A DNA stretch of 64,000 nucleotides from Callorhinchus milii. Taxonomy: Eukaryota. Location of the stretch: NCBI RefSeq assembly GCF_018977255.1, contig NW_024704743.1, forward strand, positions 5,768,001-5,832,000, written 5' to 3'. The number at the start of each line of letters is the position of its first letter. Position 1 is the first letter of the stretch. Below the pieces are notes generated by a model. That model was given only the letters and a program-made list of their open reading frames with translations. It searched no databases and was not told where the DNA came from. The position numbers and the translations under genes are program-made. This document shows positions 5,498 through 61,109 of this stretch, piece by piece.

Positions 5498-6780
5498 AAC
5501 AACAACAACAACATTACATTTGTATAAAGCCTTTCATGTCGGGAGGACGTCCGAAGACGCTGGACTATCGGTGCTTCTGACCCGAGCTGGGGGTCGGGAT
5601 TGGGGCAGGTGGAGGGCAGGAGGGGCCTGGAAGGAGGGTGACCGAAAGCACGGTCAAAGAGGAGGGTCTTCTGAAGGGTCTTGAAGGAGGCCAGGGAGGG
5701 GGCAAGCAGAGGGACTGGACTGGAGTTCCATAGGGTGTTTGGAGAGTGGCTGAAGGCCCGCCTGCCAATGGTGAGGCGGGTGAGGTGGAGCACGTGAAGC
5801 AGGCGATAGCCTGCTGAGTGGAGGGAGCGGACAGATTGGTAGGGGTTTAGGAGGTCACAGAGGTAGAAGGGAGCAAGGCCATGGAGGGCTTTGAAAGGGA
5901 GGTCCAGGATCTTGAAATGTAACCTCTGTGTAATGGGAAGCCAGTGGAGTCGGGCGAGGATGGGGGTAATGGGGTCGTGGAGCTTGGTGCAGGAGAGGTC
6001 CCGGGCTGCAGAGTTCTGGATGATCTGCAGCCTTTGGGGGGAGGAGTTGGGAAGGCCGACAAGTAGGGAGTTTGCGTAATTGAGCCTGGATTATGAATAT
6101 GTGTATGAGGGTCTCGGCAGCCTGCAGTATGAGACAGTGGCAGAACCAGGCGATGCTTTGGAGGTGGAGGAAGGCAGAGCGGGTCATGGCACAGATGTGG
6201 GGTAGAAAAGACAGTTGAGGGTCAAACAAGACACTAAGGTTCCGGACTGGCTTAGCGAGGTGGAGTGTGCAACCAGGGATGGTGATGCTGTCAGCGTCTG
6301 AGGTGTGGAGACGCTGACGGGAGCCAATCAGGAGGGCCTCAGTCTTGTTGATGCTCAGCTGTAGAAAGTTAGCTCTCATCCAGGACTTGAAGGGCGAAAC
6401 CTTGGGCAAGTTTCCTTACTCCACACGCCTAATAATAATCCCTCCAAAAACAAAAAAGAATAATAAATTGGTCATTTTCAATCCACGACTGTCTGTGGGA
6501 CATTGCTGTGCGCAATTGGCTGCCGCGTTCGCCCACAAATACACAGTCAATTCACTTTACAGTATATTCTGTGAAGCGCTTTGGGACGTCTAGAAGACTT
6601 GAAAAGCGTTATATCAAATGCAAGGATTATGATTATTATTATTATTTTTATTGATGTCTGTCAGGAGAGCAATGGTCCTAGAGTCAAGGGTGGAGGCAGA
6701 GAGATAAGAGTTGTGTATCATCCACATATGTGTGGAAGTTGACCCCATGTCTGCAGATGATGTCACCAAGAAGGAGCAAG
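5498..6780 (-). mobile_element. L2-clade LINE 3' fragment interrupted by a SINE (6391-6650, + strand)
   Basis: Translations include WMRANFLQLSINKTEALLIG, VRNLSVLFDPQLSF and GRRAFSHSPNTLWNS, with a (TTG)n tail. L2 sequence resumes at 6651 after the SINE, with TTGA on both sides. Confidence 0.9.
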
Positions 6781-16589: not shown

Positions 16590-18335
16590 AATAACAACAA
16601 CCACAACAACAACACATGACATTTGTATAGCGCCTTTCATGTCAGGAGGACGACCCAAGGTGGTGGACAGTTAGGGATCCGCACCCGAGCTGGTGGTTGG
16701 GATCAGGAAGGGTGGAGGGAGGGGAGAGTAGGGGTAGGAGGGTGACCGAATGCACGGTCAAAGAAGAGGATCTTGAGACGGGCGTTGAAGGAGACAAGGG
16801 AGGGGGCGAGGTGGACGGAGTGTTGGATGGTGTTCCAGAAGGTAGGGGCAGAGAGGATGAAGGTCCGCTCGCCAATGGTGCGGCAGGCAAGGCGGGTCAC
16901 ATGAAGGTCAGAGCCTGCTGAGTGGAGAGAGCGGACAGATTGGTAGGGTTAGGAGGTCACAGAAGTAGGGAGGAAGAAGGCCGTAGAAGGCTTTGAAGGT
17001 AAGGATCAGGAACTTAACTGTATCCTCTGAGCGTTGGGGAGCCAGTGGAGTCGGGTGAGGATGTGGGTGATAGGATCATGGAGCCTGGTGCGGGAGAGGA
17101 CATTTTGCATTGCATGGATGTGATGAATGCGTGGATAAGGGTCTCTGTGGCCTGCAGTGAGAGACAGTGGCGGAGCCGGGCAATGTTGAGGAGGTGGGGA
17201 AAGGAGGAGCGGGTCATGGCACGGATGTGGGGGATGAAGGACAGTTGAGGATCGAACAGGACGCTGAGGTTCTGTATTGACTCCGTGAGGTGTAGAGTGC
17301 ATCCATGAAGAGTGATGCTGTCAGCGCCCGAGGTATGGAGGAGCTGACAGGAGCCAAGCAGGAGGGTCTCGGTCTTGTTGACGTTCAACTGGAGAAAGTT
17401 ACTCTCATCCAGGACTTGATGTCCGACAGCCAGTCTGTGAGGACAGCAGTGGTCCTGGAGTTGAGGGTGGAGGCAGAAAGATAGAGTTGGGTGTTATCTG
17501 CATACATGTGGAAGTTGATACCATGTCTACAGATGATGTTACCAATTGGAAGCATGTAGATGTTGAAAAGGAGGGGATCAAGGACAGAGCCCTGAGGGAT
17601 GCCACACATGATGGTGTGGGGGCTGGAGGAGAAGCCATGACCCGAGACAAAGTGGAGACGGTGGGAGAGGTAGGATTTGAACCAGGAAAGAGCAGATCTG
17701 TGAAGATTGAGCTGAGAGGAGAGGTGGTTGAGGAGGATAGAATGGTCTACAGTCTTGAAGGTAGCAAAGAGGTCGAGGAGGACAAGGAGGCAGAGAGAGC
17801 CCTGATTGCAGGTGGGCAGAATATCGTTAGTGATTTTCACCAGGTCTGCGAGCAGCACGGAAACCCGATTGGAAGGGTTCATAAAGGGAATGGCAGGAGA
17901 GTAAAGAGTGAAGCTGGGACATGACGATTTGTTCCAGGGCTTTGGAGAGGAAAGGGAGGTTGGAGATGAAGAGTAATGATGGGTCCAGGGAAGGGTTTTT
18001 CAGGATGGGGGTGATGAAAGTTGTTGTTTAAGGGGATGAGAACAGCGCCAGTGGATAAAGAGAGGATGATGATGTCGGTTAAAAGAAGAGCCAGGAGGTG
18101 GAGCTGGGAGGTTAGGAGAGGGGTGGGGATGGGGTCGAGGGAGCAGGTGGTGGGCTTGATTTTTCAAATGATGGAGGTGAGGGAAGAGGGGGAGACAGAG
18201 TCGAAGGTGTGTAAGGAGGGGTGGGTCAGGGCCGTGGTGTGAGGGGAAGGTGGGGAGGTGGTAGCGGTAGACGGGGGAGAAGCTAGCTGAGCAAATCCCC
18301 TCGATTTTGGACTCAAGGAAATCCAACACTACCAC
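16590..18335 (-). mobile_element. L2 LINE, 5'-truncated, with reverse transcriptase (frameshifted)
   Basis: RT motifs LLVLLDLFATFKTVDH, GIPQGSVLDPLLF and HMYADNTQLY, then LHWLP and a (TTG)n tail. Confidence 0.92.
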
Positions 18336-19399
18336 ATGCAGAGGAGACAAATGATACCCTTGTCCAGCTAACATCGCAAGTGGTGAAACTGCTGACTGCT
18401 TCTCACTGGCTAACAAAACATCGTCTGTCAGACCTGCCTAATCCTACTGTTTCATGGACCTCTGCAGTTGACTGCACCAACGGCAGCTGCTAAAGTGGTT
18501 GGAAACTGATTTCACAAAGTTAACCTACTGTGAACAAATGTTGAGCTAATGAAGTCTGACTCCGCTCTTTATGTGCACAGTGTTGCATCCTTCCTCAGAC
18601 ACTATTTAATCGCCGCAGATGTGTTTTATCCACAAATATTGCATGATCTAATGCTGTTGGGAACGGATATTTGAAGTGTTGGGATGCTGACAGGCTTTAA
18701 AATATTGTCCTCTGGACACGACGGGTATTTTTAGCCTGAAAGTCACTATATTTCTCAATAGAATCTTTACTTTGGAAACCTAAACTCACAGTGGAGGTCA
18801 CCCCCAATGTTGAGAGAAATGGGACTGAAAAAGATCAACTAAGAAGCGACGGATAGGTGACAACAAGTATAGGTTTTAAAATTTAGAAAATTTGTTTTAC
18901 TAAAATAAAATAAGAATAATTTGATATAGCGCCTTTCACAGAGGGAGGACGTCTCAAAACGCTTCACAGGATAGACTGTAAAGCGTGATGACTCTATTTT
19001 GTAGGTGAAACGGATAGGAGAGAATCGATAAAACTAAAAACGGTTGCAGTTAAAATCAGCAACTTTATATGTTTGAAGTAACCTTCTGCCATCATTACTG
19101 TACGTCAAATTCTAATTAGCTTTTATTGCCAGCTTCCGATTTAAGTCAACGTGTTTAATTACAGATTTTTTAAACTATAACTGAATTTTTTATATAAGTT
19201 GAACTTTGCAATTTTATTAATGTGAGGTGCCACACCATTTGGTAGCACTCTCACCTCTGGGTCAGAAGATTGCTGGTTCAAGTCCCGAGTCAGGAGTTTA
19301 AGATCATAGCCTAAGCTGAAGTCCACGCAGTGCATTGTCAGCGCCGTTTATTTTTGGATGAGATGTTAAACCAAGGGTCTCATCTGCCTTCTTTTAAGT

Positions 19400-20680
19400 G
19401 GACTCTCAACTCCCCCTCCTCTGCCCACGGCTGGCAGACACAATAAATCAGTTCCTCCCCTCAGGCTACTCTCGATCCCTTCGACCTCACTCACTATCAT
19501 CCCATTTCAAACCTGCCCTTCCTGGCCAAAGCCCTGGAGCGCGTTGTTACAAATTCTGCATACTCCACTCCCTACTCGAACCCCTCCAGTCTGGTTTTCG
19601 CCTGGCCCACAGCGCAGAGACAGGGCTCATCAAAGTAACAAATGCCATCCTCTCTCTCTGTGACCAGGGCTCCCTTCTACCTGCTCATCCTCCTGGATCT
19701 GTCCGCCACGTTCGACTCAGTCGACCACACCATCCTCCTTCACCACCTCTCCTCCCTTATCCACCTTGGTGGGACCGCATTCGCATGGTTCAAGTGCTAC
19801 TTGACTAACCACCAGCATTTCATCTCGGCCAATGGTTATTCCTCCCGGCACCGCCTGGTCACCTGCGGGGTACCCCAAGGCTCAATCCTTGGCCCCCTTC
19901 TTTTTCTTATCTACATTCTCCCTCTCAGCGATGTCATCCACAGTCATGGGTTCAACCTCCATGCGGATGACACTCAAATCTACTTCTCCTCCAGCTGTGA
20001 CCTCCCAGTCCACTGATGTCCTGTGAGCTTGTTTGACAGACATTAAAGCCTGAATGAGCACAAATTTCCTGCAGTTGAATGTCGGCAAGAAGGAAGCCAT
20101 ACTCTGACTCCCATCAACGTCTTATCTCCTGCGGGTCTGAACTCCTCAACCTCTCTGGGCTCTCCCTCAGACTCTCCAAAACTCTGCACAACTTAGACAT
20201 CAGGTTCAATCCCCAGCTTTCCTTTCTACTACACATCCGTTCCCTACCAAGACCCCATTTGTCCACCTCCTCTATATGCCCACCTCCGTCCTTACGTCAC
20301 AGCCACAGCAGCCGAAACCCTCATCTACATCTTTGTCACTTCCCAGCTGGACTTTTCTAATGTCCTTCTCGTTGGTCTCCCCAGTTACACCATAATGGCT
20401 CTGCCTCCTATTTGCCCCTCGTGCCCTCCGTTCCACAGTCGGTGGACGTGCCTTCAGCCACTACGCCTCAAAACTCTGGAACTCTCTCCCTCAATCCCTC
20501 CATCTTGCCCCCTCCTTCCCCACCTTCAAATCTCACTTAAAGACCTTCCTTTTTGATCTTGCTTACGGTCACCTCCCCCCTCCCTCTCCCCCTGGTTCAT
20601 TGTCAATCTCCGCCGCTGTGAAGCGCTCCAGGACGCTACCCCATGTGAAGGGCGCTAAATAAATGCAACTTGTTGTTGTT
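19400..20680 (+). mobile_element. L2 LINE RT fragment, second subfamily
   Basis: QSGFRLAHSAET, LLDLSATFDSVDH, GVPQGSILGPLLF and HADDTQIY. Its tail (GCGCTCCAGGACGCTACCCCATGTGAAGGGCGC plus (TTG)n) differs from the other L2 group. Confidence 0.9.
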
Positions 20681-25750: not shown

Positions 25751-26039
25751 TGTAATTGTTGTGATTGAGATCGAAGTACCCAAAAGGACTGTTCCTTGTT
25801 CTTCCTAATAACTTCTAAAATTCATGTGACAACAACCATCAGTTAGTTCCTCTTGCGAATCTTCGCTGAAACAATTCAATTTAAAACACAAAATCCTGGA
25901 AATGCTGCAGGTTAGAAGAATTACATCTGAATCCCTGTCTTTCTCTCTCATGTGTGGAGTGACATGCTGCTGTCATTTACGTTTCAAATTTCGCAATTGC
26001 TAACATAGCTTCCCCACTAATTTCTCTTTTAGGACATTA

Positions 26040-26530
26040 GAGGGTTGGGACAAGGGAGGGTGGTGGGAGGGTAGGAGGGTGGCCGAAAGCACGGTCAAAG
26101 AGGAGGGTCTTGAGAAGTGCCTTGAAGGAGGCAAGGGAGGGAACGAGGTGGAGGGAATGTGAGGTGGAGTTCCAGAAAGTGGGGGCAGAGAGGCTGAAGC
26201 CTTGACCGCCAATGGCGAGGTGGGCCGAGCTCGGGGAAGTGGAGCAGACCAGAGCCTGCCGAGCAGGGGGCTTAGCAGGTCACAGAGAAGGGGCAAGGCT
26301 GTGGAGGTGAGCACGAGGATTTTGAACTCTATCCTTTGAAGGATGGGGAGCCAGTGTAGCCGGGCGAAGGTGGGGGTGATGGGGTCACAGTGCTTGGTGC
26401 AGGAGAGGACACGAGCTGCAGAGTTCTGGATGATCTGCAGCTTGTGGAGGGAAGAGTTAGGAAGGCCGACAAGCAGGGAGTTGGCGTAGTCGAGCCTGGA
26501 TGTGATGAACACATGGATAAAGGTTTCACC
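26040..26530 (-). mobile_element. L2 LINE 3' fragment
   Basis: [17 protein letters not shown]...[12 protein letters not shown]...[15 protein letters not shown]. Confidence 0.9.
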
Positions 26531-28833
26531 CAACAACCACACAGACCTTTCACCAGCGATTACAAAACAGTAATTAGAAGCAGGTCCCTGGCTGATGTTC
26601 CCTGAGACACTGAGACCAGCTGTAGAGCTTCCACCCCTGCTCACCCTGGGATCAGCTAGTTCAGCATAGACCAAAGATTGAAGCTGGAAACTTTTCGGTC
26701 TTTACAGCTCAACACCACAACCCAATATCCTTTATGCACTGATATATTGAGGGGCGTGGAGGGTGAAGAGTGGAGGGGGAGGTTAAGGTCACAGAAACAA
26801 CAACTTGCATTCACATAGCACCGTCATGATTTGTAGGTGAGTGTGAAGATCTTGAAATCAATCCGGTCTGCAGCAGAGAAGTCTGGCAAAGACTGGGGAG
26901 ATGGGGGTGCAGTGTCTGAAATAACTTATATTTTACGCATCACAGCCACAGTTTGCCCACAGCAAAAAAAAACATGTTTCTACCGATGGAAGTAATGCTT
27001 ACAAATAAGATTTGGCACCTTGTCACATCGTTCAGATGTCTCAAAGAATATACTGTAAAATGAATCAACGGTGTATTTTGTGGGCAAAACGCAGCGGCCA
27101 ATTGCACACAGCAGTGTCCCACAAAGAGTTGTGGATTGAGTGACCAAACTATCATTTATTTATTTTTGATGGGATTATTAACCGCGGAAAGCAATCCGCC
27201 AATCGACTAGGAACCCGGGATCCTACTTCCTGCTAGATAAACAGAGGCCTGTGGAGTAAGCAAACTTGCCTGAGGTTTTCTTACTTAAAATAATTTTGAG
27301 TCACTACCGTGATAAATATAATAGGGACAGGGAGAATAGTTATATAGGGGATACCAGCAGTGCCCACTTTTGTAATGTTTTTTACACACCCAGTGGGTGA
27401 CGGCTTGTCAGAACTTGCTGTTGGCCGTCAATGTTTCCGTTTCAAAAGTGGTGCTGTGATGATGATGAAGCACGACAAACTCCAACCCAGGAGAGGAAAA
27501 GGTCAATGGAATTAGATGATTACACCTTCAAACAGCCAGCACAGGAGAGAATGACTTTCTGCGCTGTAAAGTTCTACGGTTCTATGATTCTAACAGTAAA
27601 GTGAACGACTACTCCACAGAAGGGCTGGAGTTGTGTTCTGACGGACCAGGACTCCCAATTATACCAACAACATGCATTTTCCACATACAGTACAATGTAG
27701 GATAAAGTCCCCAAATGCCTTACAGGAACAGTGTGGACATACAGGGATCTGGGAATCTGGGAAGGTGTCACGGTCGAGGAGGTAGCTTTTTTAATGAAGT
27801 TTTTTAAAAAAAGGAGAAGGGACGTGATGTAGAGTGACCCAGACTTAGAGTTCCACCTTTGTTACACAGTGCCTAAGCTCATCAACTGCTTATAACTGTG
27901 ACATGTACTATCTGTTATTGGCACCACTGAAATGTTAGATTCTTATAATGCAATTCAAATTTACCTTAAACAGACCTTTGATGGCGGGAGGACATCCCAA
28001 GTCACAGAACAATCTTGGTTTTTCACTGGAGCGAGGGGTAGGAGCTGAAGGATGGCGAGAAGGGGAAAGATGAGAGAAAGTGCCGTCAAAGAGGTAGCTC
28101 TTGACATGGACCTTAAAAAGGGTGAGGGAGGGAGCTTCTTAGCACAATTCAGTGAAAAACACACTGATGATTGCACCTTTGGAAATTCTGTCGATATCTC
28201 CATTGATTTTCCTTTATCCCGTTACTTTTCCCCTCCCCCCACCCAAAAATAACCAAACCTGAGGCCAACTATGGCAACTATTGACCTAAAGCCCTGCCAA
28301 TCGTGGGATTAATATTGAGTTACACCACTACTTGGCGTTGGCTCATTCAATTGCCAGGAGGTTCAGTGGCTGCCAGAGCAAATGCGAGCTCAACTATTTT
28401 GACAGAAGTGGGGGGAAGAGAAATGTAAATAGACACACACGAAGACATCAGAAAAATGAATTTTTCACCCCATGTTCTATTCTCTGCCACGTAGTTACAA
28501 TGCAAGTTCACCTCTAGCTCTCAGCGTTTTTGTGGTAAGTTTGAGTCCTCTTATTTATACACCTATTTCCAGAACTCTGGGTCTCCAAGTTATTCTGAAA
28601 AAAAACAACCACTTGATGATTCCGTTCTTGGTAAAAGCCAGATTATTTGAGATATCCCAGCTATGTACGACATGCCTTTCTTTGACCAGTGGAGAGCTTC
28701 AGTTGGCTGCACTAAGACTGGCCGGAATCTGAAGCCAGGGTCCATCGTGAATCCAGTCGTCCCTTATCAGCTCAAAGCACCAATCGCCCTATACATTCGT
28801 GGCGATATAGAGGAACTTTGTCAAATGAATGAT

Positions 28834-30344
28834 TCAGGACGAAACCCACAAAAAGGAAAGGTTTGTCCCGCGCTCATGGGCGATCTGGTTTATCCGCCCT
28901 CGGACACAATCCAGGGAGATCGAGGCCATCGTGCCGTTCTGGACGGCAAAGGAAGTGCGGAGAGAAACACTGGTCCATTGGCTGCCCTCGGGCATCTGCC
29001 CCCCGATCTGCTGTGCCAGTGTGGCCGGCTGGGCCTGGCGGCTCTGCAGTCTGTACAGAGTGACTCTGACGATGCTGCAGGAATGAATGAGCTTCAGGTT
29101 CAAAGCCACACTGGCCACTCCCTCATCGCGGAACAGGACGCGCTCCCGCGCAAACTGCCCGTCCGTCACCAGCCGCACCTGACTCGCTTCTGTGGCCGGC
29201 AAAACCTCCTGAAACCGGAGCGATCTGTTCCTCACGGCCCCCATCGGCAACCCAGCCTTGCAGACCCGCAGGGAGAGGGCGGTGGAAACAGCCGAGGGAA
29301 TCCAGAGGAGGCTGAACACGCTGATCCCAGGCACGACCCCAAAATAGCGCACGCTGCACTGCGCAGGGGAGAGGATCTCGAAGCTGATCATGTCCCCGGT
29401 GTTAACCTGGGCAACTCCGGAGGCAGATATTGATGTGTCTCTGTAATTCACGCCAGTTTTATAAACCTGAACCAGCTCTCGGTTCGTTCCGTTCCTGTTA
29501 ATGTAGGAGATCAAAGTGAAGCCCTCTCCAATGCAGGTGTGACCCATGGCATAGAGCGCTTGGTGGTACACGAACCTCACCACTCCCTTCTCCGTGAAGC
29601 GAATGGCTCTCCCCCCGTGGCACAGGCTGATCATGTAGGGGTCAGAGATGGCGATCACCTGGAAGACGGGTCTGTAGTTGCTCTGGTAGTGCACCGAGGT
29701 GGTCGTGTGAGCGCTCATGGCCACAGCGCCCGTGTCGTGCGAGAGCCAGAAGAAGCTGAAGGGAGCGCGCAGGTGGTAGACACTCAGGTCGTGGCTTTGA
29801 TTGCAGTGTTGGTTGGGGCTCTTCAACACCAGTTGGATTACGTGGCCGGGCTCCACTTCGGCAGAGCCGCTCACGCTCGTGCTCTGGTAGTACTTGCCGT
29901 CCGGCTGCTCGATGCGAGCCCCGCTGAGGTCCCGCCCGCCCTCGCTGTCGTTGAGCTGGAGCGTCAGCTGAAGGAAGTTCCTGCAGTGGTGCTTGACCGC
30001 AAAGTTGTAGTCGACCCAGATCAGGCCGTGCTGCCCGAGCACCAACCGTCCGTCCTGATTGGTGGCGAGGTGCGACTTAGGCTGCCCTTCGATGGCCAGG
30101 CTCAGGCCCAGGTCGACCTCCCCACCGGCTACTTCGGTGCTCGCCCACCACGATCCCGAGAGCCGGGCCTCAGGCGATCGGCCACACACCGCGTCGCCGT
30201 GCGCGGAGCATCGGAAAGCCACAGCCCCCTCGGGGCACAGCGAGCAGGCCTGGCACTCCTGCATTTCGCTGTTGAAGAAGTAGCCGTGGCCGCAAAAGCC
30301 CGAGATCACGTCCCTCTCCACGATCCCCAGGCACCGGAATCCAC
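28834..30344 (-). CDS. Unnamed secreted multidomain protein, final coding exon: end of EGF, TNFR-type Cys-rich domain 2, three tandem C1q/TNF-like domains
   Basis: Acceptor gttgacag|GT (phase 1), 1511 nt open to TGA, GC/CpG-rich. Contains CGHGY...CQACSLCPEG...C....D..C. Three ~150-aa repeats end FSFFWL, FSLLWI and LSFLWV. Confidence 0.9.
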
Positions 30345-30429
30345 CTGTCAACACAGCGGAGCACACAGGCCGGTTATCAGGGCCGAGCACAAGGATCTCC
30401 ACGGTTATAAGAACACCAGGAATACCCAC

Positions 30430-30496
30430 CTGGAGTGTTGAGGCACTTGACCTGATCACCACAAAGCTCTGCTGACTCCAGACACTCGTCCTTGTC
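30430..30496 (-). CDS. Unnamed secreted protein, 67-nt micro-exon (N-terminal part of a calcium-binding EGF-like module)
   Basis: aaatttag|GAC...CCAG|gtgggt encodes DKDECLESAELCGDQVKCLNTP(G). Phase 0 in and phase 1 out match both neighbours. It lies in a different frame from the ORF-track ORF. Confidence 0.88.
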
Positions 30497-30973
30497 CTAA
30501 ATTTCAAATCATACAATTAATAAGACGGGCACGAAGTGTTAAGCAACACGTTATTAAAGTATTAAAAGTACTGCGTTGTAACAGCTAGGCTCACACATCC
30601 CGGATACCCGGAGTGTGTGTATAATCCAGTAGTGTTTAAGTGCTCCGAGACGCTACCCTGCGTGGAGAACACTATATAAGTGCAAGGTGTTGTTGTAGTG
30701 TGTCTATGCATGTACGTTTATACAATACTAATACGCGTATATGTTATATTTGTGTGTATATGTGGGTGTGGTGCGTATACGCATGCGTGAATGTGTATAT
30801 ATGCGTACGTGTATTATGTGTGTGTATGTGTGTGCATGCGTTTGAATGTGTGTGAAGTGTAAGCGTATTGCGTGTACATATGTATGCGTGTACGTGTTAT
30901 TCTGTATCGACAGAGAAGTCAGCAAGCAGCTTAGCGCTTTCAGACAGCAGTGCCAGGCTGTGGAGCGGTTCAC

Positions 30974-31512
30974 CTGACATATGCGGTCAGCGGTTTGCGA
31001 GCACTCCGAGAGCAGATGAAAGCCCGCCGGACACAGGGTGCACTTCTCACACTGGGGCGGCATCTTGTGCAGATCACAGAACTCATCGGCGCTGCACAGT
31101 GCGCACTCCGTCAGCCTCCCGCTGACGTCCAGCACTTCGGCATCAACGTCCACGGTTTGCACCGCATACTCCTTCCGCAGCTGAGTTTGAATGTGGCCCT
31201 GCAGTCTGTGCAGGTGAGACTCAAACTGATCCTGGATTTCGGCTTGCAGGCTGGAAAGGGACGTTAGCTTAATGCTTTCAGAGAGCATGTGGTACTGGAC
31301 TTTTACGAGCTCCATCTGCTCGAACATTTTCCTCTGTTGGCCGAGTATTTCTCTTTGTTGGTTGATCAGAGCCGTCTGCTGTTCAGTCAGACTGTGCTGT
31401 AAGTCGCTGATCATTTTCTGCTGGCTCTTCAGCAGCTCCACGAACTTCTCCTGTCCCTTTGACAGCTGGAGCTGCAGAATTAGTGCGTCTTCAGACGGGA
31501 CTTCGTTGTCTC
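30974..31512 (-). CDS. Unnamed secreted protein, coding exon 2: coiled coil and TNFR-type Cys-rich domain 1
   Basis: cgtttcag|GA (phase 1) to CAG|gtgaac (phase 0), 539 nt. Gln/Leu heptads are followed by CSADEFC...CEKCTLCPAGFHLLSECSQTADRICQ. Confidence 0.9.
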
Positions 31513-32749
31513 CTGAAACGCCATGAAAGTTTTAAGCGTGAATGTGACGCTGCCACTGAATAAATGGGTGGGTGGGTGATTGGTTGGGTGAATGCACACA
31601 TGGATGAAGTGCATTTATTTCGCATTTCACCCACAAAACATACAGTCAATTCACTTTACGGTATATTCTGTGAAGCGCTTTGAGACGTCTAGAAGATGTG
31701 ATGAGGCGCTATATGAAACGCAAGAATTATTATTATTATTTGTGTTTTCAAATCATCACCACAGTTTTTCATCGTACTTGTAATTTCAGCTTCCCTCTGC
31801 TTTGTGATTCGTAGGAGAAGATAGGGAGATAAGGAGGTGCTCGGTCATGGGAGGGATTTAAAGGTGCCGACTGAGGTGATGGGCATTTGAGAGGAATCGC
31901 AATTGCAGGGTGGAATTCCACGATTTCAGTTGCAAACCAGAAGCCGAAATTAGGACAGCAACTTTTGAATGAGAATGCTGTGCCGCATTTTCAAGCTTGC
32001 TGTTTACTGCAAGCTCTTCAGATCACATCTGAAGACCTTCCTCTTTGACCGTGCCTCCGGCCCTTTTTCCCTGGCTCTGTGTCAAGCTACGTCACTGTTA
32101 AGCGCTCCAAGATGCTACCCCATGTGAAGAGCACTATATAAATGCAAGCTGTTGTTGGAAGTCTGAAGTCTGATCTTATGGAACGTACGGTTATGGAATT
32201 GCCCTGTACTTGTTAAATCACAAATAAAGGTTCTGCAAAATAGTAAGCAAAAGTTCTAGAGAACGTGTTCAGTTCCAGTCTAGTACTGGGAAGCATTAAA
32301 TTGTTGAAGGTGCCATCCATCAGGATAAGACTTTAAACCTGGGTCCCACCTGCCTCCTCAGGTCGGTGTTAAAGTTCCCATGACAAGAGAAGGAAGTTTC
32401 ACCAGAGCAGTTGTTGGAATACTTGGTGAAGTATGTATAACGTTTGTCAGACTAGCTGGAACTAATGTGGAAAAATCAAAACATGTAGCACAGACCTCTT
32501 GAGTACAATTTCTGCAGCAGTCACATAATATATTATGCAGTATAAGAATGCAACCACTCTATACAAAAGGTCAGGTAACCTGTGCATAAAGGAGTATTCA
32601 GGGTTTTTTGTTGGTCAGCCAGGTGTCTGACACATGTGAAAACCCATCTTAAGAGTTTCCCAAACAAACTGAAAGTTCTACATAGGTACGCCAATTACAC
32701 ATGGGTATTTGAATATTCACGTAAAAAGATGTTTTTAAAAATATATATA

Positions 32750-33003
32750 TAATAATAATAATAATCCTTGCATTTGATATAGCGCTTTTCACGTCGGGAG
32801 GACGTCCCAAAGCGCTTCACAGAACACACTGTAAAGTGAATTGACTGTATATTTGTGGGCGAACGCGGCAGCCAATTGCGCACAGCAATGTCCCACAAAC
32901 AGTCGTAGATTGAAAATGACCAATTTAATTATTGTTTTTGGTTTTTTGGAGGGATTATTATTAGGCGTGTGGAGTAAGGAAACTTGCCCAAGGTTTCGCC
33001 CTG
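32750..33003 (-). mobile_element. tRNA-derived SINE, short form, 5'-truncated, CTCCC-loop variant
   Basis: Body nearly identical to 37771-38097. Lies in an intron of the unnamed gene. Confidence 0.9.
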
Positions 33004-34093
33004 CAATATATATTGCAATATATATTGTTTCCAGCAAAACAAATTGACTTACTTAATCCCCCCAGAACAGGACAGTAAAAAGCTTGCTACATTAATAATA
33101 TTATAATCCTTGCATTTGATTTAGCATCTTATCAAATTGCCCAAAAGTCCCAAACTAGTTAACAGGATTTACTGTAGAGTGTAGTGACTGTGCATTTTGC
33201 ATGTGAGCATGGCAGTCAACTTGGGCACAGCAATGTCTCGCAAATGTCAATTTTATCTGGTAGATTTTATCTGGTAAGGAAAGATACTGATCATAATAGG
33301 ACAATCTAGAAAATCGGGTCCAAAACACAATAGTCACAAAATGGATTTGTTACATTAATTGCAAAATTTGTTTTAGCAAGAATACATTTGAGAGCAATAA
33401 ATAAGAGATAGACATTATCAATACCACTCCACCAAATGAATGAATGAATGAATGAATGGGTTAGCCTGGCCCAGTTGATAGCACTCACACCTCTAAATCA
33501 GAAGGTTGTGGGTTCAACCCCACATTTGAGTCGACTGACAACAGCAGCAACAAAATTACATTTGTATGGAGCCTTTCACATTGGGAGGCACTGGGCAGAA
33601 AAGAGTTTTGGACCCGAGCTGCGGGTTGGGATCGGGGAGGGTAGGGGGGGAAGCAGGGTGATCGAAAGCACGGTCGAAGAGGAGGGTCTTGAGATGGGTC
33701 TTGAAGGAGGCAAGGGAGCGGGAGAGGCTTAGGGACTGTGGGATGGAGTTCCAGAGGGTGGGGACAAAGTGGCAGAAGACTGACACTCCCAATACAATGT
33801 TGGGGGAAGCATTGGTTTGTCAAAAGGTAATGTCGTTCGGGTGACATTAAACCGAGATTTCATCATCCTGTTCAACAGCAACAACAAAATTACATTTGTA
33901 TAATGCGTATCACGTTGGGAGGACATTCCAAGGCGCTGTTCAGGTGGACATTAAAGATTCCTTGGTACTATTCATAAAGAGGAGAGTTTCTTCCCGTGTC
34001 CTGGCCAACAATCCGCACGTACAAATTAGCTATTATTTTTGTTGTATTTTTAATGAATAAAAAATCTGTGCAGAATAACCACTTGTCACTTAC

Positions 34094-34709
34094 CTGGTTT
34101 GATGTCACAAGTCAGCTGGACTCCCAGGGCTGCTCCTCCCAGCTCTGTGGCAGGATAGCCCGAGGCTGGGATCTCGCCTATGAACTGAGCTGCTGTGTCG
34201 GGTATGTGTGTGTAACTCGGCTGCCTGGGAGTGTCTGATAGCAACGGGACCGAAACAGGGGGACAAAGCTCTCCATTGCAATGAGATCGGGGTTTGGGCT
34301 TCAGGCGGATCCTGAGAGGCAACTTGCATTCAATCCCTTTGCATTCTTTGGAGTCGTTTGGCTGCAGGGTCTGGCAACTGCTCCCAGTGCAAACGCCTGT
34401 GTCTTCAGCCACTGCCACTCTCACATGCTCCTTCCTGGTGTTGGGATCCAGGATGGATCTGGAGCTGGATGTTTGATGAGCCCGAGAAGGTGGGATCTCC
34501 CTGTCCTGGAGGTTGCCTACATTGGCTCGGAAGGGTCTGAAGACCCTGGTCTGGCACTGAGCTCCTGTGCACAGCCTATCCCCCTGCCCAGCGCTCGCTG
34601 TGTAACAGTAAACCCCTCGGCAGATCTCAGCGGTGGTGCCACTAACTCCTGGTCCAGGACAGGTCAATGGGAACAGGAGGAGTAAGAGACGCTGCAGTGA
34701 CAAGGACAT
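34094..34709 (-). CDS. Unnamed secreted protein, first coding exon: signal peptide and five CxGxxC motifs
   Basis: Acceptor ttatcacag| at 34753/34752. ATG at 34709 in AGCATG context. Signal-peptide-like MSLSLQRLLLLLFPLTCPGPGVSG. Donor CCAG|gtaagt at 34094 (phase 1). Confidence 0.88.
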
Positions 34710-35188
34710 GCTTTGTCTTGGGGCAAAGGAAAGACTGATTCCTCCTCCTGATCTGTGATAAAACACACAAAACATGTTTTTTTTCCAAAAAAAATCCTAA
34801 ATTCAAATAAATCAAATTTAGTCATCTCTGAATAATGTTATATAATCTTTGTATTTCTCTCAACCCCCCACTACCAACACCCCCCCCCCGCCCCACCACC
34901 TCCCCACACACCAAAGAAAAGTCAGCACATCCCCCCACACAAAAAAAACAGAACTGGTTTAATATCCACAGTCTCACATTTTTGGGGGGAATTTTTAAAA
35001 CATTAGGGAAAGAAGGGGGCAAGGCGGAGGGTTTGAGGGAAAGTATTCCAGAGTTTACACTTTTGCAACTCATCCCTTTTTTTTTGGGGGGGGGGGGATT
35101 TAAAAAAGAGTGAATGTGCCAAATTATTAAATTATTATCAGGAGAGGGGAAAAATTGTGACGTTGAAAGAAATAAAGGATCGCCTTAC

Positions 35189-35390
35189 CTGCAAAGGGAG
35201 TTGATTCTGCAGCTGGAACTCCTGGATCTCTTCTCAGTGAACTTTATTTTTATTTTGATTATATTAAAAAAAAAGTCAAAACTCTTTTCGTTGCAGCAGT
35301 GCAATGTGCATCTCCTGAGTGGAACTGAGGACTGGATGTGAATGGGTGGCATTCCACAAGTAATAAGGATCAGGGAGAGGAGGGTGTGTG
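35189..35390 (-). other. Putative non-coding first exon (5'UTR) of the unnamed gene; 5' boundary uncertain
   Basis: Strong donor CAG|GTAAGG at 35189/35188, about 440 nt upstream of the coding exon acceptor. A TTAAATA TATA-like motif lies at about 35416-35422 on the - strand. Confidence 0.5.
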
Positions 35391-36304
35391 TGTGTGTGTG
35401 TGTGTGCTCCCAAAACTATTTAACCCCTTAAGGGCCGAAGATGTCTCTTGCAGGGATTGTTCATTCCCTGGCAGTTTCCCAGCTCTCCGACTTGCTTACT
35501 CCCTTCCCTCCCATCCCCGCCAATTTACAACCCTGACTCCGCTAGACTGGCCCTGGCCTCCTGCTTGTCCTTTGTGCCCTCCGTTCCACCATCGGCAGCC
35601 ACAATTTCAGCCATTACACCACCAAACTCTGGAACGCTCTCCCTCAAACCCTCCGCCTTGCCCCCTTCCTTCCCTATCTTCAGGTTGTGCCTGAGTCCTT
35701 CCTCTTCGACCGTGCTTACAGTCACCGACCCCCGGTTCAGCATCTTGCTCAGCCACTGTCAAGCTCTCTGAGACATTACCCTACATGAGGGGCATTATAT
35801 GAATACAAGTTGTTGTTGTTATTTCACACACAATCCCAACCCCCACCTCACCCAACAAAAAAGGTGGTTTGAAAGAGCAGGAGAAAGTGCAATCACTTTT
35901 ATTTTTTTAAAAAGTGTGCATTTCTGGTTCGAAGAAACAAGGAAAAAGTTGCTCGAGAAAAGGTTAACTTGTCTTACGAAAAAGTCAGCCAAATTCTGGT
36001 GTCACCTCTTTTGTTTGAACACAGCGATGTAACATCATCCCCGTTAATAACCCCTCAGTCCATTGAATCATTTTAATCGGATACAAATTCCTGTTGGAGG
36101 CTTGTGTTTTGATGTTAGTTTCACAGGGAAAGAAATTTCCTCAAGGCACATCACTGGCTCAGCCCTGAGGAGACCCCACTTATCTCCCCTCCAGGAAGGA
36201 GGGTCACTAGGTTATTAGACATCTGACAAGGGCAGGCAAGCATGGGAAGCATTTTTGTCCCTCCTATCGACATGAAACAACATATAAATGTAACTTCTAT
36301 TGTA

Positions 36305-36960
36305 ATACTCTTTGGCTCTCGTCAACGTCTAAAATCTCACGGCTTTCACCTCCTCCACCTACCCAACCTCCACCTAAAACTCTCCGAACCCGTACGCAAC
36401 CCAGGCGTCAGGTTCGACCCCCAATTATTCTTCCTCCCCCACATCCGGTACCTCACCAGCACCGCTTTCTACCACCTCCGACGCATCGCCCGTCTCCGCC
36501 AATACCTCTGCCAAAAAGCCGCTGAAACCCTGGTCCATCCCTTTGTCACCTCTCGGCTGGACTACTCTAATGCCCTCCTCACCGGTCTCCCATACACTAC
36601 CATCCATAAAATCCAGATTATTCAAAACTCTGCCGCCTGCATTCTCACCCGCACAAAACTCCGCTCCCTGATCACCCCACTGACCTCTTCTCTCCTCAAA
36701 ACAGCACCCGTTGCCTTCGTTCCTCCAGGTCTGGCCTCTTCCTCCAAGTCCTCCTCTCCATTCTCAGTGGCCGTGCCTTCGGCCACGATGCCTCGAGGCT
36801 CTGGACTCCCTTCCTCACTCCCTTCGCCTCGCCCCCTCTCTTCCTATTTTCAGGTCTCGGCTGAAGACCTTTCTTTCCGACCGTGCCTTTGGTCACCTTC
36901 CTCCCCCTCCCCCTGGCTCATCCCCGGAATCCATTACTGTGAAGCACTCTGAATGCTTCC
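36305..36960 (+). mobile_element. L2 LINE 3' fragment
   Basis: HLRRIARLRQYL...FVTSRLDYSNALLTGLP...IQNSAACIL. Confidence 0.9.
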
Positions 36961-38097: not shown

Positions 38098-40479
38098 AGG
38101 CATGATAAAAACCCAAGTTCACTCCTGGTGTGTTTGAACACACGGACAGGCACACAGGACCTAGGTTTAACGTCTTATTATTATTATTATCAGAAGGATA
38201 AAATCTCCAGAAAGTGTAGCTGGTCCCCAGCACTGGATTGAAGTGAGTGTCAGCATAGATTTCAAGTCCCAACAAGGTGCACGAACTCGCAACCTTCCAG
38301 CTCAGAGGCATGAGTGCTACCAACGGAGTGAGATTGAGACACCATCCAAAATTAGCCATTTTATTTTCCCCAGTTATATTGCATCTTAGCATTAACTCAT
38401 CATGTTTTCTATGTGTGGTAGACGTGAAAATTATAATACAACATTTATTCATGCTGGATATCCTGTATGTATTTGATTTTGAATTCTGCTCCTGAAACTA
38501 CTTCCAGTAGGTCATTTTGAATGGCTGCACTGTGGTAGCCATCCACTCACTGTAAACATCACATTAAGGAATTATCACTGTGGCGATAAATCTCTAATGT
38601 GATAGTTTGTGAACGCAAAGGGTTAATCAACGAATGTGTCTGGAGTCGGTGAGTCTGATTCAGTTGATTACGATCACAAAGGCTTGAGATTTTAGCACTG
38701 GCTGTCAGGTCATAAACAGTGTTCAAACAAAGTGGTCAAAAAGGAGGGTTTCAAATACAATAGAAAGAGTGAACTTGGGTTTTTATTGTGCCTTATCATG
38801 TCAAAAGATCTCAAAGCAAGTTTAAGTAATTACTTTCAAGGGCAGTAACTGATTTTACAGGTGAATACAGGATCCATTAAATACACAGAATGTTTCCCTC
38901 GAACAACTGTTAGGTGAATTAGCTCATTTATCAGGAGGATTGATGACCAGGACACTGGGGAAACACCCTTCTGTTTCAATAGTGTCAAGAGATCATTAAC
39001 ATCCACCTGGAGACAGAACTTTGGTTCAACATCTCATCTGAAGGACACATTTCTGACGAGATAACATTCCCTCAGTACCATTCCATTCAAATAGTCTGAT
39101 GGGAATTATTTATTTTGCAGTTGACTGGCAGCTTTAATTTGGAAAGACAGCAGCTTCTGTTTCTCTGAGACTGACTTGTGACTATCTTCTATGTGTGCGT
39201 ATGGTAGGGTTGTGGTTTGTGGTGTCTCCGTGGAGCTGAACTGGATCCAAATGCCATGTCCTTGGAAACAATATGACAGAATTGAGTCAACCCTCTATGG
39301 CAGCTTGTGGTCCAGTTCCCGAGCCAGTTTGGTGTACAGTATTCCAACGCTGCTCATGATGGAAAAGTCAGCCGAGCTCACTGACAACATTTGGGAGCAG
39401 GGATTTAAGTAGGTAAAGTGATAATTTCCTTCATAATTGGGATATTGATATGTGAAAGTTGGTTGCCACATTTGTCTACAAATACACTTACATTTTACAG
39501 TGTGAAGTGTGTATATCAAATATAAGTAGTATTATTAATGGAAGTTTTCTGAAAGATACAAATTTACTTTATATCACTGAAAATAAGTAAACTTATAATA
39601 CACTGGTACAATGAGTAAAGTATTGCAGTGTTTAATGTTCACTAGCACAATTTTCCTAAAAACAATGATTTTGAGGTTCATCAAAGAATCTATCCCAAAG
39701 GGGTTTTGAATTTGTGGAGCAATGTCAACTGCTCTGAACTTAGAAATACTGTACTGAGCCATCATCCAGAGGCATCAGATTGAAGGCGCTAATTTTCAGT
39801 GTTTGAGACCAAGACACTTTGATCGGTCAAGCCAAACCAACCCAACTCAGGGCAGAATCATTCAGCCAGAACTAGAAAGAAAATTTATAGCTTCACGATC
39901 ACAAGCTGACTTTACACAAGGAGCAGAAATGATAATTTGTCAGTGTGTTTAAACACAGAGCAAATTGTAAGTTTTTAACAGTGTATCCTATTAAGCTCTC
40001 TGAGGCAAACTCCCGATGTGAGAGGCGTTATATCAAAGTTAAGAATTATTATTAAATTTATGATGAGCTTAATTTCATTTATTGTTATAAAGATAGCTGT
40101 CTTTTAGGTAATGGGGGATAAGCTATTCAAGAGGAATTCAAGAGAGAATTCAAGAGGGAATTAGGTGGCTATTTGCAAAAGCAATCAATTGAGCGCTATG
40201 AGATTTGGTTTGTGTGTGATTTTGTTTTTGTATCGAGACCAGCTAGATGGAACACAATGCTTTTTTTCCATTTCTATGTTTAAATTTCCATTCCTATATT
40301 TATATTTTTCCCATTCTCTATATCCACCAAAACAGAAAATGTGCAATTCCAAGTCACGGGGACACCACTGATGACACTTCTTACATGTGTGCTGTGCGCA
40401 GGATAGTGTGCTGAAGTAAACATCCTACGAATTGCATATGTGGAATATGTGCAAGAAGCATGGGTGATGTCTCTCAGAC

Positions 40480-41420
40480 AGCTGAGTTAAATGGTTGTGG
40501 ATTCAAGGCTCACATTGGGGCATTGAGCTCACAGTCCAGGCTGGCATTCCAATGCAGTGCTGGGGTGTGCTGCATTGTGGAATATGCCGTACTTTGGTTA
40601 AACCTGCGTGTCTGCTCAAGTGGATGTTATCACGCAAACTCCCTGCTTGTCGGTCTCCCCAACTCCTCCCTCCATAGGCTGCGGATCATCCAAACTCTGC
40701 AGCCCGTGTCCTCACCAGCACCAGGCTCCTCGACCCTATCACCCCCATCCTTGCCCAACTCCACTGGCTTCCCGTCACACACAAAGGATCAAGATCCTGG
40801 TCCTCACTTCCAAAGCCCGCCCATGGCCTTGCTCCCCCCCTACCTCTGTGACCTCCTAACCCCCTACCAACCTGCCTGCTCCCACTGCTCAGTGGGCTCA
40901 GGCCTGCTTCACGAGCCCCGCCTCGTCCCCCCACCACCCTCTGGAACTCCATCCCACAATCCCTCTGCCTCGCCCCATCCCTCGCCTCCTTCAAGACCCG
41001 TCTCAAGACCCTCCTCTGCGACCATGCCTTCGGTCACCCTCCTTCCCCTTCTGACTTTCACCCTCCCCGATGCCAACCCCCAGCTCGGGTCCAAAACACC
41101 GATTGTGCAGCGCCTTGGGATGTCCTCACGACATGAAAGGCACCATACACATGTAACATTTGTTGTTTGTTGTTGTTGTTGTTGTTGTTGTTATTACAGA
41201 TCCCATGGAATTGTTTGAAGAGAAAAGGGAGTTTCTCCCTTTCTTCTGGCCAACCATCCTCCAAACAGAAAAATGGTCATTCACTGGGTGCATAAGGACA
41301 TTACTGTGTGCAAATTGGTTGCAGCAAATACATAATCACTATACTTTACAGAAAAACTCTGTGAAGCCCTTTGCGATGTTTTGACATGATAAGTTGCTAC
41401 ATCAAATGCAAGGATTATAT
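40480..41420 (+). mobile_element. Deu-domain SINE interrupted by an L2 3' fragment (about 40630-41195)
   Basis: The Deu-like consensus GTGGATGTTA-AAGATCCCATGG is split by the L2. Uninterrupted copies lie at 45800-46110, 57050-57360 and 62220-62760. Confidence 0.75.
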
Positions 41421-53636: not shown

Positions 53637-56017
53637 ACATAAGAACATAAGAAATAGGAGCAGGAGTAGGCCATTCGGCCCCTCGAGCCTGCCCCGCCAT
53701 TTAATAAGATCGTGGCTAATCTTCTAACCTAATTCCATTTACCTGCCCTATCCCCATATCCCTTAATCCCTTTCGTTTTTAAAAATCTATTGATCTCAGT
53801 CGTGAATATGTTCAATGACTGAGCATCCACAGCCTTCTGGGGTAGAGAATTCCATAAATTCACTACCCTCTGAGTGAAGAAATGTTTTCTCAACTCAGTT
53901 CTAAAAGGCTGACCTATAATCCTGAGACTATAACCCCTAGTTTTACATTCTCCAACCAAGAGAAACAGTCTCACTATCTACCCTGTCAAGACCCTTAAAA
54001 ATCTTATAGGTTTCCATAAGATCATCTCTAATTCTTCTATATTCTAGAGAATATAGTCCTAGTCTACTCAACTTCTCCTCGTAGGTCAACCCCTCATCCC
54101 AGGGACCAACCTAGTGAACCTTTCTTAGATAAGGAGACCAAAACTGCACACAATATTCCAGGTGCGGTCTCACCAAGGTCCTATACAATTGCAGTAAGAC
54201 TTCCCTACTCTTGTACTCTGACCCCTTTGCAATAAACATTAACATGCTATTAGCCTTCCTAATTGCTGCTGTACCTGCATACTAACTTTATGTGATTGGT
54301 GTACAAGGACACCTAAATCCCTCTGAATATTAACACTATCTCGTCTCTCCCCCTCTAAAAAATGATCTGCTTGTCTATTTTTTCTACCTAGGTGAATAAC
54401 TTCACACTTCCCCACATTATACTCCATCTGCCACCTCCTTGCCCACTCAGTTAACCTGTCTATATCCCTTTGCATCCTCCTTGTGTCCTCCTCACAGCTT
54501 ACTTTCCCTCCTACCTTTGTATCATCTGCGAATTGAGATACACGAAGCTCTATTTCCTCATCTAATTAATTGATGTAGACTAAACAGTTGCGGCCCAAGC
54601 ACTGATCCTTACGGCACTCCACTAGTCACAACCTGCCAGTCTGAGAAGGCCCCGTTTATCCCCACTCTCTGTTTTCTGCCTGTTAACCACTCTGCGATCC
54701 AACCTAATATATTACCCTTAATTCCATGCGCCCTAATCCTATGTAACAATCTTTTCATGTGGCACTTTATCGAATACCTTCTGAAAACCTAAGTACACTA
54801 TATCCATTGGTTCCTCCCTATCTAACCTGCTAGTTACATCTTCAAAAAATTCTTAAAAGATTTGTTAAACACGATTTCCCTTTCATAAAGCCGCGTTCAC
54901 TCTGCCTAATCATATTAATAATAATCCTTGCATTTATGACTGTCTAAGTGCCCCACAATGGCATCCCTAATTATAGACTCTAGAATTTTCCTTATCACCG
55001 ATGTCAGGCTAATTGGTCTATAGCTCCCCATTTTTTTTCCCCCACCCTTCTTAAATAGCGGTGTTATGTTTGCGATCATCCAATCAACAGGAACCATTCC
55101 AGAATCCAGGGAATTCTGGAAAATCAAAAACAATGCATCCACTATCTCTGCAGCCACCTCTTTTAAAACCCTAGAATGCAGGCCATCAAGTCCAGGGGAT
55201 TTATTAGTTTTTAGTCCCATCAATTTCTCTTTACTGATATTAATTTCTTTAAGTTCCGCACTAACATTAGTCTCTTGGTTCCCCACTATTTCTGGTAAGT
55301 TTTTAGTATCTTCCAACGCGAAGACAGAAGCAAAGTATTTGTTATTGACTCTGCTATTTCTTTATTCCCCATTATAATTTCTCCTGTCTCTGCCTGTAAG
55401 GGACCCACATTTACTTTTGTTAATCTCGTCCTCTTTATATACTTGTAAAAGCTCTTACAATCTGTCTTTATTGCTAGTTTATTCTCATATTCCATTTTCT
55501 CCTTCTTAATCAGTTTCTTGGTTATCCTTTGCTGATCTCTAAAGCCCTCCCAATCCTCAGGTTTACAACTCTTTTTGGCAATATTATAGGCCTCTTCTTT
55601 TAATTTTATACTTTCCTTAACTTCTCTAGTTAGCCATGGTTGAACCACTTTTCCTGTGGAATTTTTATTTCTCAAGGGAATACGCGTTCATTGGGAATTA
55701 TCTAATATATCTTTGAACGTTTGCCATTGCTTGGCTACCGTCATATCTTTTAAACTATTTTCCCAGTTTATTTTAACCAAATCGTCCCTCATACCTGCAA
55801 AGTTGGCTTTATTTAAGTTTAAGACCCGTGTTTCAAACTTAACTACATCACTCTCTCAAACTTGATATTAAATTCCATCATATTATGGTCATTCTGCCCT
55901 AGAGGAGCTTTAACGTCAAGATTACTGATTAGCCTTGCTTTGTTACACAATACAAAGTCGAGCATAGCGTGTTCCCTGTTTGGTTCCTCAGCATACTGTT
56001 TTAGAAAACTACCTCTA
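53637..56017 (-). mobile_element. CR1 LINE, about 2.4 kb, 5'-truncated, degenerate ORF2 (end of endonuclease, RT, C-terminus, 3'UTR)
   Basis: KSPGLDGLHSRVLKE, YRPISLTSV, WQMEYNVGKCEVIHLG and RKHFFTQRVVNLWNSLP, with a TTCTTATG-type tail. Abuts another CR1 fragment at 53390-53636. Confidence 0.93.
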
Positions 56018-60572: not shown

Positions 60573-60784
60573 TTGCTAATCTAATGTTCAGGGATACGTC
60601 AACAAACTGTTCACTTAAGGTCTGTGCAGGGGATGGAGAATTGGGGAGAGAACATGTATGAGGAAGTAGGGTGGAGGTCTCTATGTAAATATAGTGCAAA
60701 AAATGCAGCACTCATAGATATTAAAAGTATATGGTGATAATGTTTTTCTGCAGAGCTTCTCACTGAGGGACACAACACACCCCA

Positions 60785-61100
60785 TTATAATAATAATAAT
60801 CCTTGCATTTGATATAGCGCTTTTCACGTCTTCTAGACGTATCATAGCGCTTCACAGAATATTCTGTAAAGTGAATTGACCGTATATTTGTGGGCAAAAC
60901 TCGGCAGCCAATTGCGCACAGCAGCGTCCCACAGACAGTCGTGGATTGAAAATGACCGATTTATTATTGTTTTGTTTTTTGGAGGGATTATTATTAGGCG
61001 TGTGGAGTAAGGAAACTTGCCCAAGGTTTCGCCCTGCCTGGAATTGAAGCCAGGTGTCTTCACTTGCAAGGCGGGCGCTCTAACCACTGAGCTACAGGAT
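60785..61100 (-). mobile_element. tRNA-derived SINE, short form
   Basis: Head and tail as in the other copies. Confidence 0.9.
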
Positions 61101-61109
61101 CCACGACAT

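Follow-up and report, generated by a model that had tools for sequence, protein, structure and literature searches.

Extracellular proteins of the C1q/TNF fold that are bundled by collagen or by coiled coils, such as EDA, adiponectin and the EMILIN/multimerin proteins, cluster their partners by displaying several heads together, and multimerin-1 combines a coil with EGF and C1q modules. The secreted proteins OPG and DcR3 carry four tandem TNFR-type cysteine-rich domains (CRDs), and we know of no C1q-domain protein that carries such CRDs. According to the portions of the sources available to us, most members of the TNF ligand superfamily are type II transmembrane precursors (PMC7674686), and chains with several domains of this fold include mammalian CTRP4 with two tandem C1q domains (PMC9952994), the products of the 21 oyster smultiC1q genes with three domains in most (PMC6835236), the mussel multi-C1q chain HcC1qDC6 (PMC5519582), and chains of TNF-homology domains (THDs), with three in the ostracod Darwinula (A0A7R9A6L1) and four to nine per chain in Hydra (bioRxiv 10.1101/2024.07.27.603686). 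Triple-domain chains therefore already have invertebrate precedent. Here we analyzed the gene nell3 of Callorhinchus milii, which lies wholly on the minus strand of a 64,000-nt stretch of contig NW_024704743.1 (assembly GCF_018977255.1, positions 5,768,001 to 5,832,000; hereafter the window, to which all coordinates refer). Within the literature searched, a conserved vertebrate protein whose single chain is predicted to form an entire TNF/C1q trimer and also carries TNFR-type modules is new, and nell3 would represent a cryptic branch of the TNF/C1q superfamily.

The locus itself is no discovery; it is a real gene, already catalogued and named in databases and functionally unstudied. A search with the product of coding exon 4 identified 201 proteins in a set of 7117 longer candidates and 194 in a set of 8000 candidates of similar length, and the statements on matches listed refer to the best 120 of each set (240 matches). 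The closest matches listed were shark proteins named 'uncharacterized protein nell3' (69-71%), followed at 50-65% by proteins of a ray, sturgeon, amphibians, turtles, birds, crocodilians, lizards, marsupials, monotremes and teleosts; cluster members included chicken NELL3 (XP_040552568.1) and zebrafish nell3 (si:ch211-37e10.2). Full-length alignment of the window protein gave 69% identity to Heterodontus, 54% to Danio and 56% to Monodelphis. In a quick maximum-likelihood tree built from 37 rows over the final ~505 residues, with the long invertebrate branches unsure, it was sister to sharks and ray with a Shimodaira-Hasegawa-like approximate likelihood ratio (SH-aLRT) support of 97, tetrapods and ray-finned fishes were recovered, and one teleost duplication led to si:ch211-252f13.5, matching the species phylogeny. 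Judged by these alignments and this tree, the locus is the cartilaginous-fish orthologue of nell3. An earlier sequence-only reading knew no named vertebrate family with this architecture and had called the gene unnamed; the latter does not hold, given the annotations nell3/NELL3, si:ch211-37e10.2 and si:ch211-252f13.5. Database entries for nell3 list only TNFR_c6/EGF and leave the three-domain TNF/C1q head unannotated; in full-length architecture the orthologues resemble the window protein, with nothing different in kind. Because the orthologues are all labelled 'uncharacterized' and a literature search with nell3, the zebrafish identifiers, NEL-like 3 variants and orthologue identifiers found no paper (subscription papers and supplementary tables lay outside this search), the full-length matches do not lead to a characterized protein. 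Some orthologues bear wrong automatic names (P0060, P0065, P0149, P0307), namely 'leucine-rich repeat-containing' in a lizard and snakes and 'prokineticin-2' in a turtle.

The name NELL3 is misleading, because only an EGF stretch of about 70 positions resembles NELL1 and NELL2. The latter consist of a laminin-G/TSPN domain, VWC repeats, six tandem EGF domains and a coiled coil; nell3 has in common with them the coiled coil and a calcium-binding EGF-like stretch, whereas it lacks laminin-G/TSPN and VWC and has one truncated EGF instead of six. A profile built from 107 homologues did match EGF fragments of NELL2 and NELL1 (E 5e-14 and 6e-6), as would be expected of a true NELL paralogue serving as a Robo or neural/bone ligand, in line with the database name. 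However, the match was confined to profile positions 302-376 of 877, and on the same stretch adhesion GPCR E5 scored better (E 8e-20). Pfam recognized neither laminin-G/TSPN nor VWC in 13 of 13 homologues (E 0.05), of which 12 are nell3-type and the 13th has only a kringle in addition, or in the four window exon products (E 1). By this architecture, with a single calcium-binding EGF half-module against six tandem EGF domains, NELL3 is not a NELL family member; NELL paralogy is largely refuted and extremely improbable.

The central result concerns the C-terminal head. Pfam returned nothing on the last 445 residues, and comparing the head with itself by BLAST revealed no internal repeat, so profile comparison was needed to see that it consists of three mutually homologous repeats of ~145 residues (hhalign E 4.5e-7, 8.2e-10 and 9.6e-8; reversed-profile controls 0.18-0.42). 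The repeats, delimited by the structural model and their homology, are D1 (about aa 470-608; 29743..30159), D2 (about aa 615-757; 29296..29724), which is the most conserved with 68% identity among jawed vertebrates, and D3 (about aa 761-909; 28840..29286). AlphaFold2 modelled the window exon-4 protein as three beta-sandwiches (mean predicted local distance difference test score 84.4, predicted template modelling score 0.83), and in the full-length Heterodontus orthologue most head blocks scored above 80. In Foldseek searches with both models, the six top rows were engineered single-chain trimers, far above the next row, including the APRIL-BAFF-BAFF chain 4zch (E 6e-18), gC1q (5hzf/5hkj), adiponectin (4dou) and Cbln1 (5kca); vertebrate single-chain trimers among the PDB matches were only such engineered constructs. 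Superposition on 4zch covered 399 residues at 3.1 A for the window model (Z 38.0) and 402 residues at 2.9 A for the Heterodontus model (Z 38.6), and the window model also fitted single-chain gC1q (Z 33.1), Cbln1 (32.2) and adiponectin (31.6). This rigid fit over all three domains indicates that the model has trimer geometry and does not resemble beads on a string. For single domains, CD40L (Z 17.0), EDA (16.7) and APRIL (16.3) led the best C1q domains (14.6-14.9), and because this lead is only about 2 Z units, the head is not assignable to the TNF or the C1q branch. The three repeats very probably have the TNF/C1q-type fold, with closure into one pseudo-heterotrimer as the predicted packing, and the 'triple C1q/TNF-like' guess made from the bare sequence is now backed by structure prediction.

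Conservation within the head bears on whether the repeats close within one chain or, instead, each trimerizes with its counterparts in two other chains to give a three-chain rod of stacked homotrimers. The long coil described below could be three-stranded, and CTRP4, which has two C1q domains in tandem, is described as assembling into trimers and larger oligomers (PMC9952994, in the portion available). However, both linkers between repeats are very short and occupy the same 8 alignment positions in each case, without length change in 107 of 107 sequences, all full-length homologues seen have exactly three repeats, and two models pack the repeats confidently in cis; we therefore regard stacked homotrimers as very unlikely, and closure in cis as the preferred arrangement. 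Each repeat carries one equivalent Cys pair that is invariant in the 107 sequences, strands assigned to the inner sheet show higher conservation than those of the outer sheet (0.73 against 0.60), and three sequons in the head are conserved in 83, 91 and 91 of 91 sequences. The identity of each repeat among jawed vertebrates (55-68%) points to a conserved partner. A structure search of the ESM Atlas with P0283 also retrieved two clusters that align over several domains. One, of 743 aa with 56 members, combines Ig C1/C2 with TNF and may consist of engineered fusions; the other, a TNF cluster of 529 aa with 63 members from Chordata, is possibly a tandem-THD protein.

Upstream of the head, the module order and the secretion proposed earlier both hold. 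A putative signal peptide (aa 1-24; 34638..34709) was placed by hydropathy, with an inferred cleavage site; an N-terminal hydrophobic stretch occurs in 81 of 96 near-full-length homologues, and 104 of 107 homologues have no later transmembrane stretch. In the window protein, the highest 19-residue hydropathy (1.76) lies on beta-strands of the model, in agreement with the predicted lack of a transmembrane segment. The CxGxxC-repeat region (aa 30-149; 34263..34622), which is of low confidence and likely disordered in the orthologue model, contains the five expected motifs at aa 30, 47, 107, 123 and 144. In 81 N-termini from jawed vertebrates we counted 2-5 of these motifs, 17 of them having five, whereas 15 of 15 sequences from invertebrate chordates had none; the motifs are thus a variable element acquired later. 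Conservation is highest over 27 residues around a Cys just ahead of the coil (85% identity among jawed vertebrates), with a related motif in tunicate and most amphioxus sequences, which suggests an oligomerization knot. A long Gln-rich helix or coiled coil follows (about aa 212-321; 31166..31495), as indicated by the hydrophobic pattern and by the corresponding helix in Heterodontus; the full-length Heterodontus model has low confidence over residues 1-228, one long helix over 235-344, and a confident CRD1-EGF-CRD2 segment (blocks 72-94). In the Branchiostoma floridae protein P0329, the N-terminal 90 residues show a Cys-x-Tyr-hydrophobic motif before a long coil, which we take to resemble the oligomerization start of angiopoietin-like proteins.

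The two TNFR-type CRDs match PF00020 (TNFR_c6), CRD1 (aa 342-384, eight Cys; 30977..31105) with E 2e-7, which passes the cutoff, and CRD2 (aa 425-461; 30184..30294) with E 4.3e-6, just below the cutoff, and their Cys positions are those noted earlier. The calcium-binding EGF module between them was only partly as described; EGF_CA was matched in the micro-exon (E 0.0067), whereas the unit is truncated and without its C5-C6 pair. All 104 of the 107 sequences that fit the search pattern lack this pair, the other 3 falling outside the pattern. The calcium motif is retained in 107 of 107. CRD2 ends ~8 residues before the first head strand, with a Cys-to-Trp span of 13 in 97 of 107 sequences, and no furin-type RxK/RR site is conserved, with just 4 such motifs across 91 sequences, which makes it probable that the head remains attached to its stalk.

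Building on the predicted fold and packing, we infer that the nell3 product is a multivalent extracellular adaptor or ligand with coil-bundled heads on a CRD-EGF-CRD stalk, a reading that we hold with evenly balanced confidence. The product would be a secreted glycoprotein, with seven N-X-S/T sequons covering the five types named earlier, whose three repeats may have been born by internal triplication before the chordate divergence. Closing in cis, these repeats would provide every chain with its own full trimeric head, in which the three clefts between domains all differ, carried on a CRD-EGF(Ca)-CRD stalk that would be stiffened by calcium. Such a head would be complete without other chains, which would leave the coiled coil of ~110 residues and the conserved Cys in front of it free to bundle several chains, and several heads displayed together could cross-link conserved partners, or gather them into clusters, at the cell surface or within the matrix. 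Among the scaffold, decoy and matrix roles first considered for the protein, a scaffold or adaptor is thus favoured, and nell3 is directly testable in zebrafish, which has two paralogues, as well as in Xenopus and chicken.

Several observations weigh against this adaptor model. At the level of the head, neither PF00229 (TNF) nor PF00386 (C1q) matched the window exon products (E 1 for PF00229) or the 13 homologues (E 0.05 for PF00229); the head profile run against PDB sequences gave 3 weak unrelated matches and no TNF chain; identity to the structural matches is 7-19%; and the trimer-facing inner strands show no significant extra hydrophobicity (0.39 vs 0.32, p = 0.25). The packing into a trimer is predicted, and AlphaFold may be biased towards trimers that are already known. 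In the coil, the helix periodicity is weak and closer to 3.67 than to 3.5. Among the coding polymorphisms listed, 5 of 9 change an amino acid, a number too small for a selection test, and we found no tissue, partner or phenotype data for nell3.

The joint presence of ligand-fold and receptor-type modules in one chain, from amphioxus to marsupials, raises another possibility, namely a self-inhibited TNF-superfamily cytokine in which the single-chain head is the agonist of a TNF receptor and its receptor clefts are filled by CRDs of the same protein, either in cis or in trans within the oligomer, until proteolysis or a partner releases them. The single-domain matches lean in this direction (CD40L Z 17.0 vs 14.9 for the best C1q domain), and an ostracod triple-THD chain has been modelled engaging its receptor as a heterotrimer (bioRxiv 10.1101/2024.07.27.603686, in the part available). 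On the other side stand the 7-19% identity to TNF ligands, the lack of a conserved furin-type site, and the CRD2-head tether. In TNF-TNFR complexes the C-terminus of a docked CRD faces away from the trimer base, and the short tether therefore hardly permits canonical docking in cis; this does not argue against docking in trans. A complex prediction pairing the Heterodontus head (aa 490-938) with its CRD-EGF-CRD segment (360-487) scored 0.00 twice, with the alignment unused and controls unfolded, and counts neither way. We consider such a cytokine unlikely. If it existed, nell3 would be an overlooked chordate TNF-type signal, a single-chain heterotrimeric ligand gated by its own CRDs and lost in placentals, an outcome to which we give little weight; that it would be the natural counterpart of the engineered single-chain TNF agonists is similarly improbable. 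TNF-family censuses would then have missed it because sequence profiles are blind to the head.

The stalk could alternatively belong to a soluble decoy of the OPG/DcR3 kind, whose CRDs capture a TNF-family cytokine while the head anchors the complex. Two TNFR-type CRDs without a transmembrane helix would suit this role, and the family profile gave weak matches to the CRDs of DR6, DR5, TNFR2 and DcR3 (E 7e-5 to 0.012); the CRDs alone, compared with PDB sequences, gave only matches with E above 0.05. However, a short helix together with the EGF half-module keeps CRD1 and CRD2 apart, whereas most TNF receptors bind their ligands through neighbouring CRDs, and conservation of the CRDs (61-65%) does not exceed that of the head (55-68%). 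A decoy function is accordingly quite unlikely, and the adaptor model remains our preferred reading in the comparisons that follow.

Compared with TNF ligands such as CD40L, EDA and APRIL/BAFF, the predicted nell3 head is alike in its jelly-roll fold and trimer geometry, whereas nell3 has three different domains per chain, CRDs of its own, no PF00229 match, no conserved furin site, and an N-terminal signal-peptide-like stretch instead of a type II anchor. Like C1q-domain proteins it would be secreted, its domains stand in tandem as they do in CTRP4 and oyster smultiC1q, its coil and EGF module next to the head are reminiscent of multimerin-1, and its predicted head fits single-chain gC1q (Z 33), whereas it lacks a PF00386 match, collagen, and any sequence link in the profile search. 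The invertebrate multi-THD chains share with nell3 several TNF-fold domains per chain and a predicted heterotrimer closure; in the part of that source available they are lineage-limited, and the Darwinula THDs each have their own transmembrane region, whereas nell3 appears secreted, chordate-wide and equipped with a CRD-EGF-CRD stalk. OPG and DcR3 are likewise secreted with TNFR-type CRDs, and nell3 differs in having two non-adjacent CRDs plus a ligand-fold head. For the terms tried, the accessible text of two papers on TNF superfamily evolution (PMC7674686, PMC12843592) contained no mention of triple-domain genes, and the available portions of the comparison literature, with supplements and subscription papers outside the search, described no secreted chordate protein that joins a triple head to TNFR-type CRDs.

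To follow the family further, the head profile was run against 1.84 billion representatives, yielding 30 matches; among the 20 looked up, those with names were chordate (pike, lamprey, Styela and six Branchiostoma clusters). In lamprey, in Styela and in most of the Branchiostoma clusters, the repeats follow the same CRD-EGF-CRD core, and a single CRD was detected in one Branchiostoma sequence. Judging from these matches, the nell3 family is chordate-wide, with members from amphioxus, tunicate and lamprey through fishes to marsupials.

This distribution also bears on a soluble pattern-recognition or lectin-like role, in which the head would bind microbial or self glycans and the coil would add avidity. 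Amphioxus has six clusters, one with a kringle, and the nearest ESM feature cluster is a 377-aa C1q-domain protein (score 0.92, 63% C1q members), which serves only as a lead. Secreted triple-C1q proteins occur in oyster (PMC6835236), and the domains of mussel HcC1qDC6 bind lipopolysaccharide and peptidoglycan (PMC5519582), as given in the portions available. By contrast, the jawed-vertebrate gene looks single-copy, slow-evolving and species-tree-like, and there was no mollusc among the named matches of the head profile search. Recognition families typically expand. We thus regard a lectin-like role as improbable and retain the multivalent adaptor. Within amphioxus, the kringle (PF00051, E 9e-23) lies ahead of the coil in the paralogue P0325/P0358, which is auto-named PLG, and one member of another Branchiostoma cluster is auto-named HMCN1. 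P0322 and P0326 (Branchiostoma, LOC118405630) are two isoforms with a common N-terminus and divergent heads, suggesting tandem duplicates spliced to one leader; TMEM41A-like proteins entered the LOC118405630 cluster via a fused model.

No placental-mammal name appeared among the 240 matches listed, in which many rows are unnamed, and the 8 members of the marsupial cluster were all marsupial. An intact placental orthologue near 60% identity would be expected among the matches listed. Twelve short, degraded-looking head fragments from ENA/Logan (P0332-P0340, P0342, P0343, P0392), apparently frameshifted, have their highest scores with orthologues from amniotes, in many cases marsupials or monotremes, and fit pseudogene remnants of nell3, possibly in a lineage that lost the gene. 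These results point to a loss of nell3 in placental mammals, which we put no more firmly because the lists hold the best 120 of 201 and of 194 with many rows unnamed; a gene-loss literature query on nell3 found no paper. Such a loss, if true, would explain why the gene was overlooked and would add an ancient secreted factor to the eutherian losses.

The gene model was reproduced as first drawn. Coding exon 1 (616 nt; 34094..34709) encodes the signal peptide, the five CxGxxC motifs and the conserved Cys201 motif, and its product aligns to Heterodontus with 56% identity over 197 columns (E 1e-66). Coding exon 2 (539 nt; 30974..31512) encodes the coiled coil and CRD1; the 67-nt micro-exon 3 (30430..30496) the EGF half-module at aa 386-412, whose final residues come from exon 4; and coding exon 4 (1511 nt; 28834..30344) the EGF end, CRD2, the three TNF/C1q-fold repeats and the stop. 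Spliced together, the coding sequence totals 2733 nt (910 aa) with its sole stop at the end, and the three coding introns (2581, 477 and 85 nt) are all GT..AG with matching phases 1, 0 and 1, as proposed. The splice model is confirmed from outside, because the spliced product aligns with Heterodontus nell3 (68.8% over aa 23-910) with zero gaps at all three junctions. Run X1, whose kind was guessed to be RNA, offers weak hints in the same direction; one contig departs from the genome at 31511, adjoining the exon 2 acceptor, and a second at 30340 with 83 unplaced letters, equal to 4 + 67 + 12 as a spliced molecule would give, while DNA-like runs continue through both sites. Runs X2-X4 pass through the introns like DNA, and no splice joint was among the 15 of 1720 joints listed.

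Further features surround the coding exons. A candidate GT..AG intron in the 5' untranslated region (UTR), proposed from sequence only, spans 34753..35188 on the minus strand, with its donor at 35188 and a likely acceptor at 34753. The nearest polyadenylation-type hexamers on this strand lie at 27164 and 27795, 1.7 and 1.0 kb beyond the stop, and run X1 contigs over 27457-28878 could be 3' UTR. Intron 2 contains an imperfect (GT/AT)n microsatellite (30690-30900), with period 10 within 30792-30854. A 260-aa plus-strand open reading frame (ORF) at 28651-29433 had no Pfam match and was treated as an antisense shadow.

The window is repeat-rich, with about a third self-matching. We compared 148 of the 190 non-repeat ORFs of at least 55 aa (444 ORFs before repeat filtering) with Pfam, and no neighbouring gene was recognized among them; the one ORF that matched encodes a reverse transcriptase. 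Decayed LINE-like reverse-transcriptase fragments were seen by eye at 5491-6415, 17014-18437, 19398-20016, 26000-26701, 36227-36952, 40415-41218, 54242-55687 and 59683-61737, with an RVT_1 match at 54242-54565.

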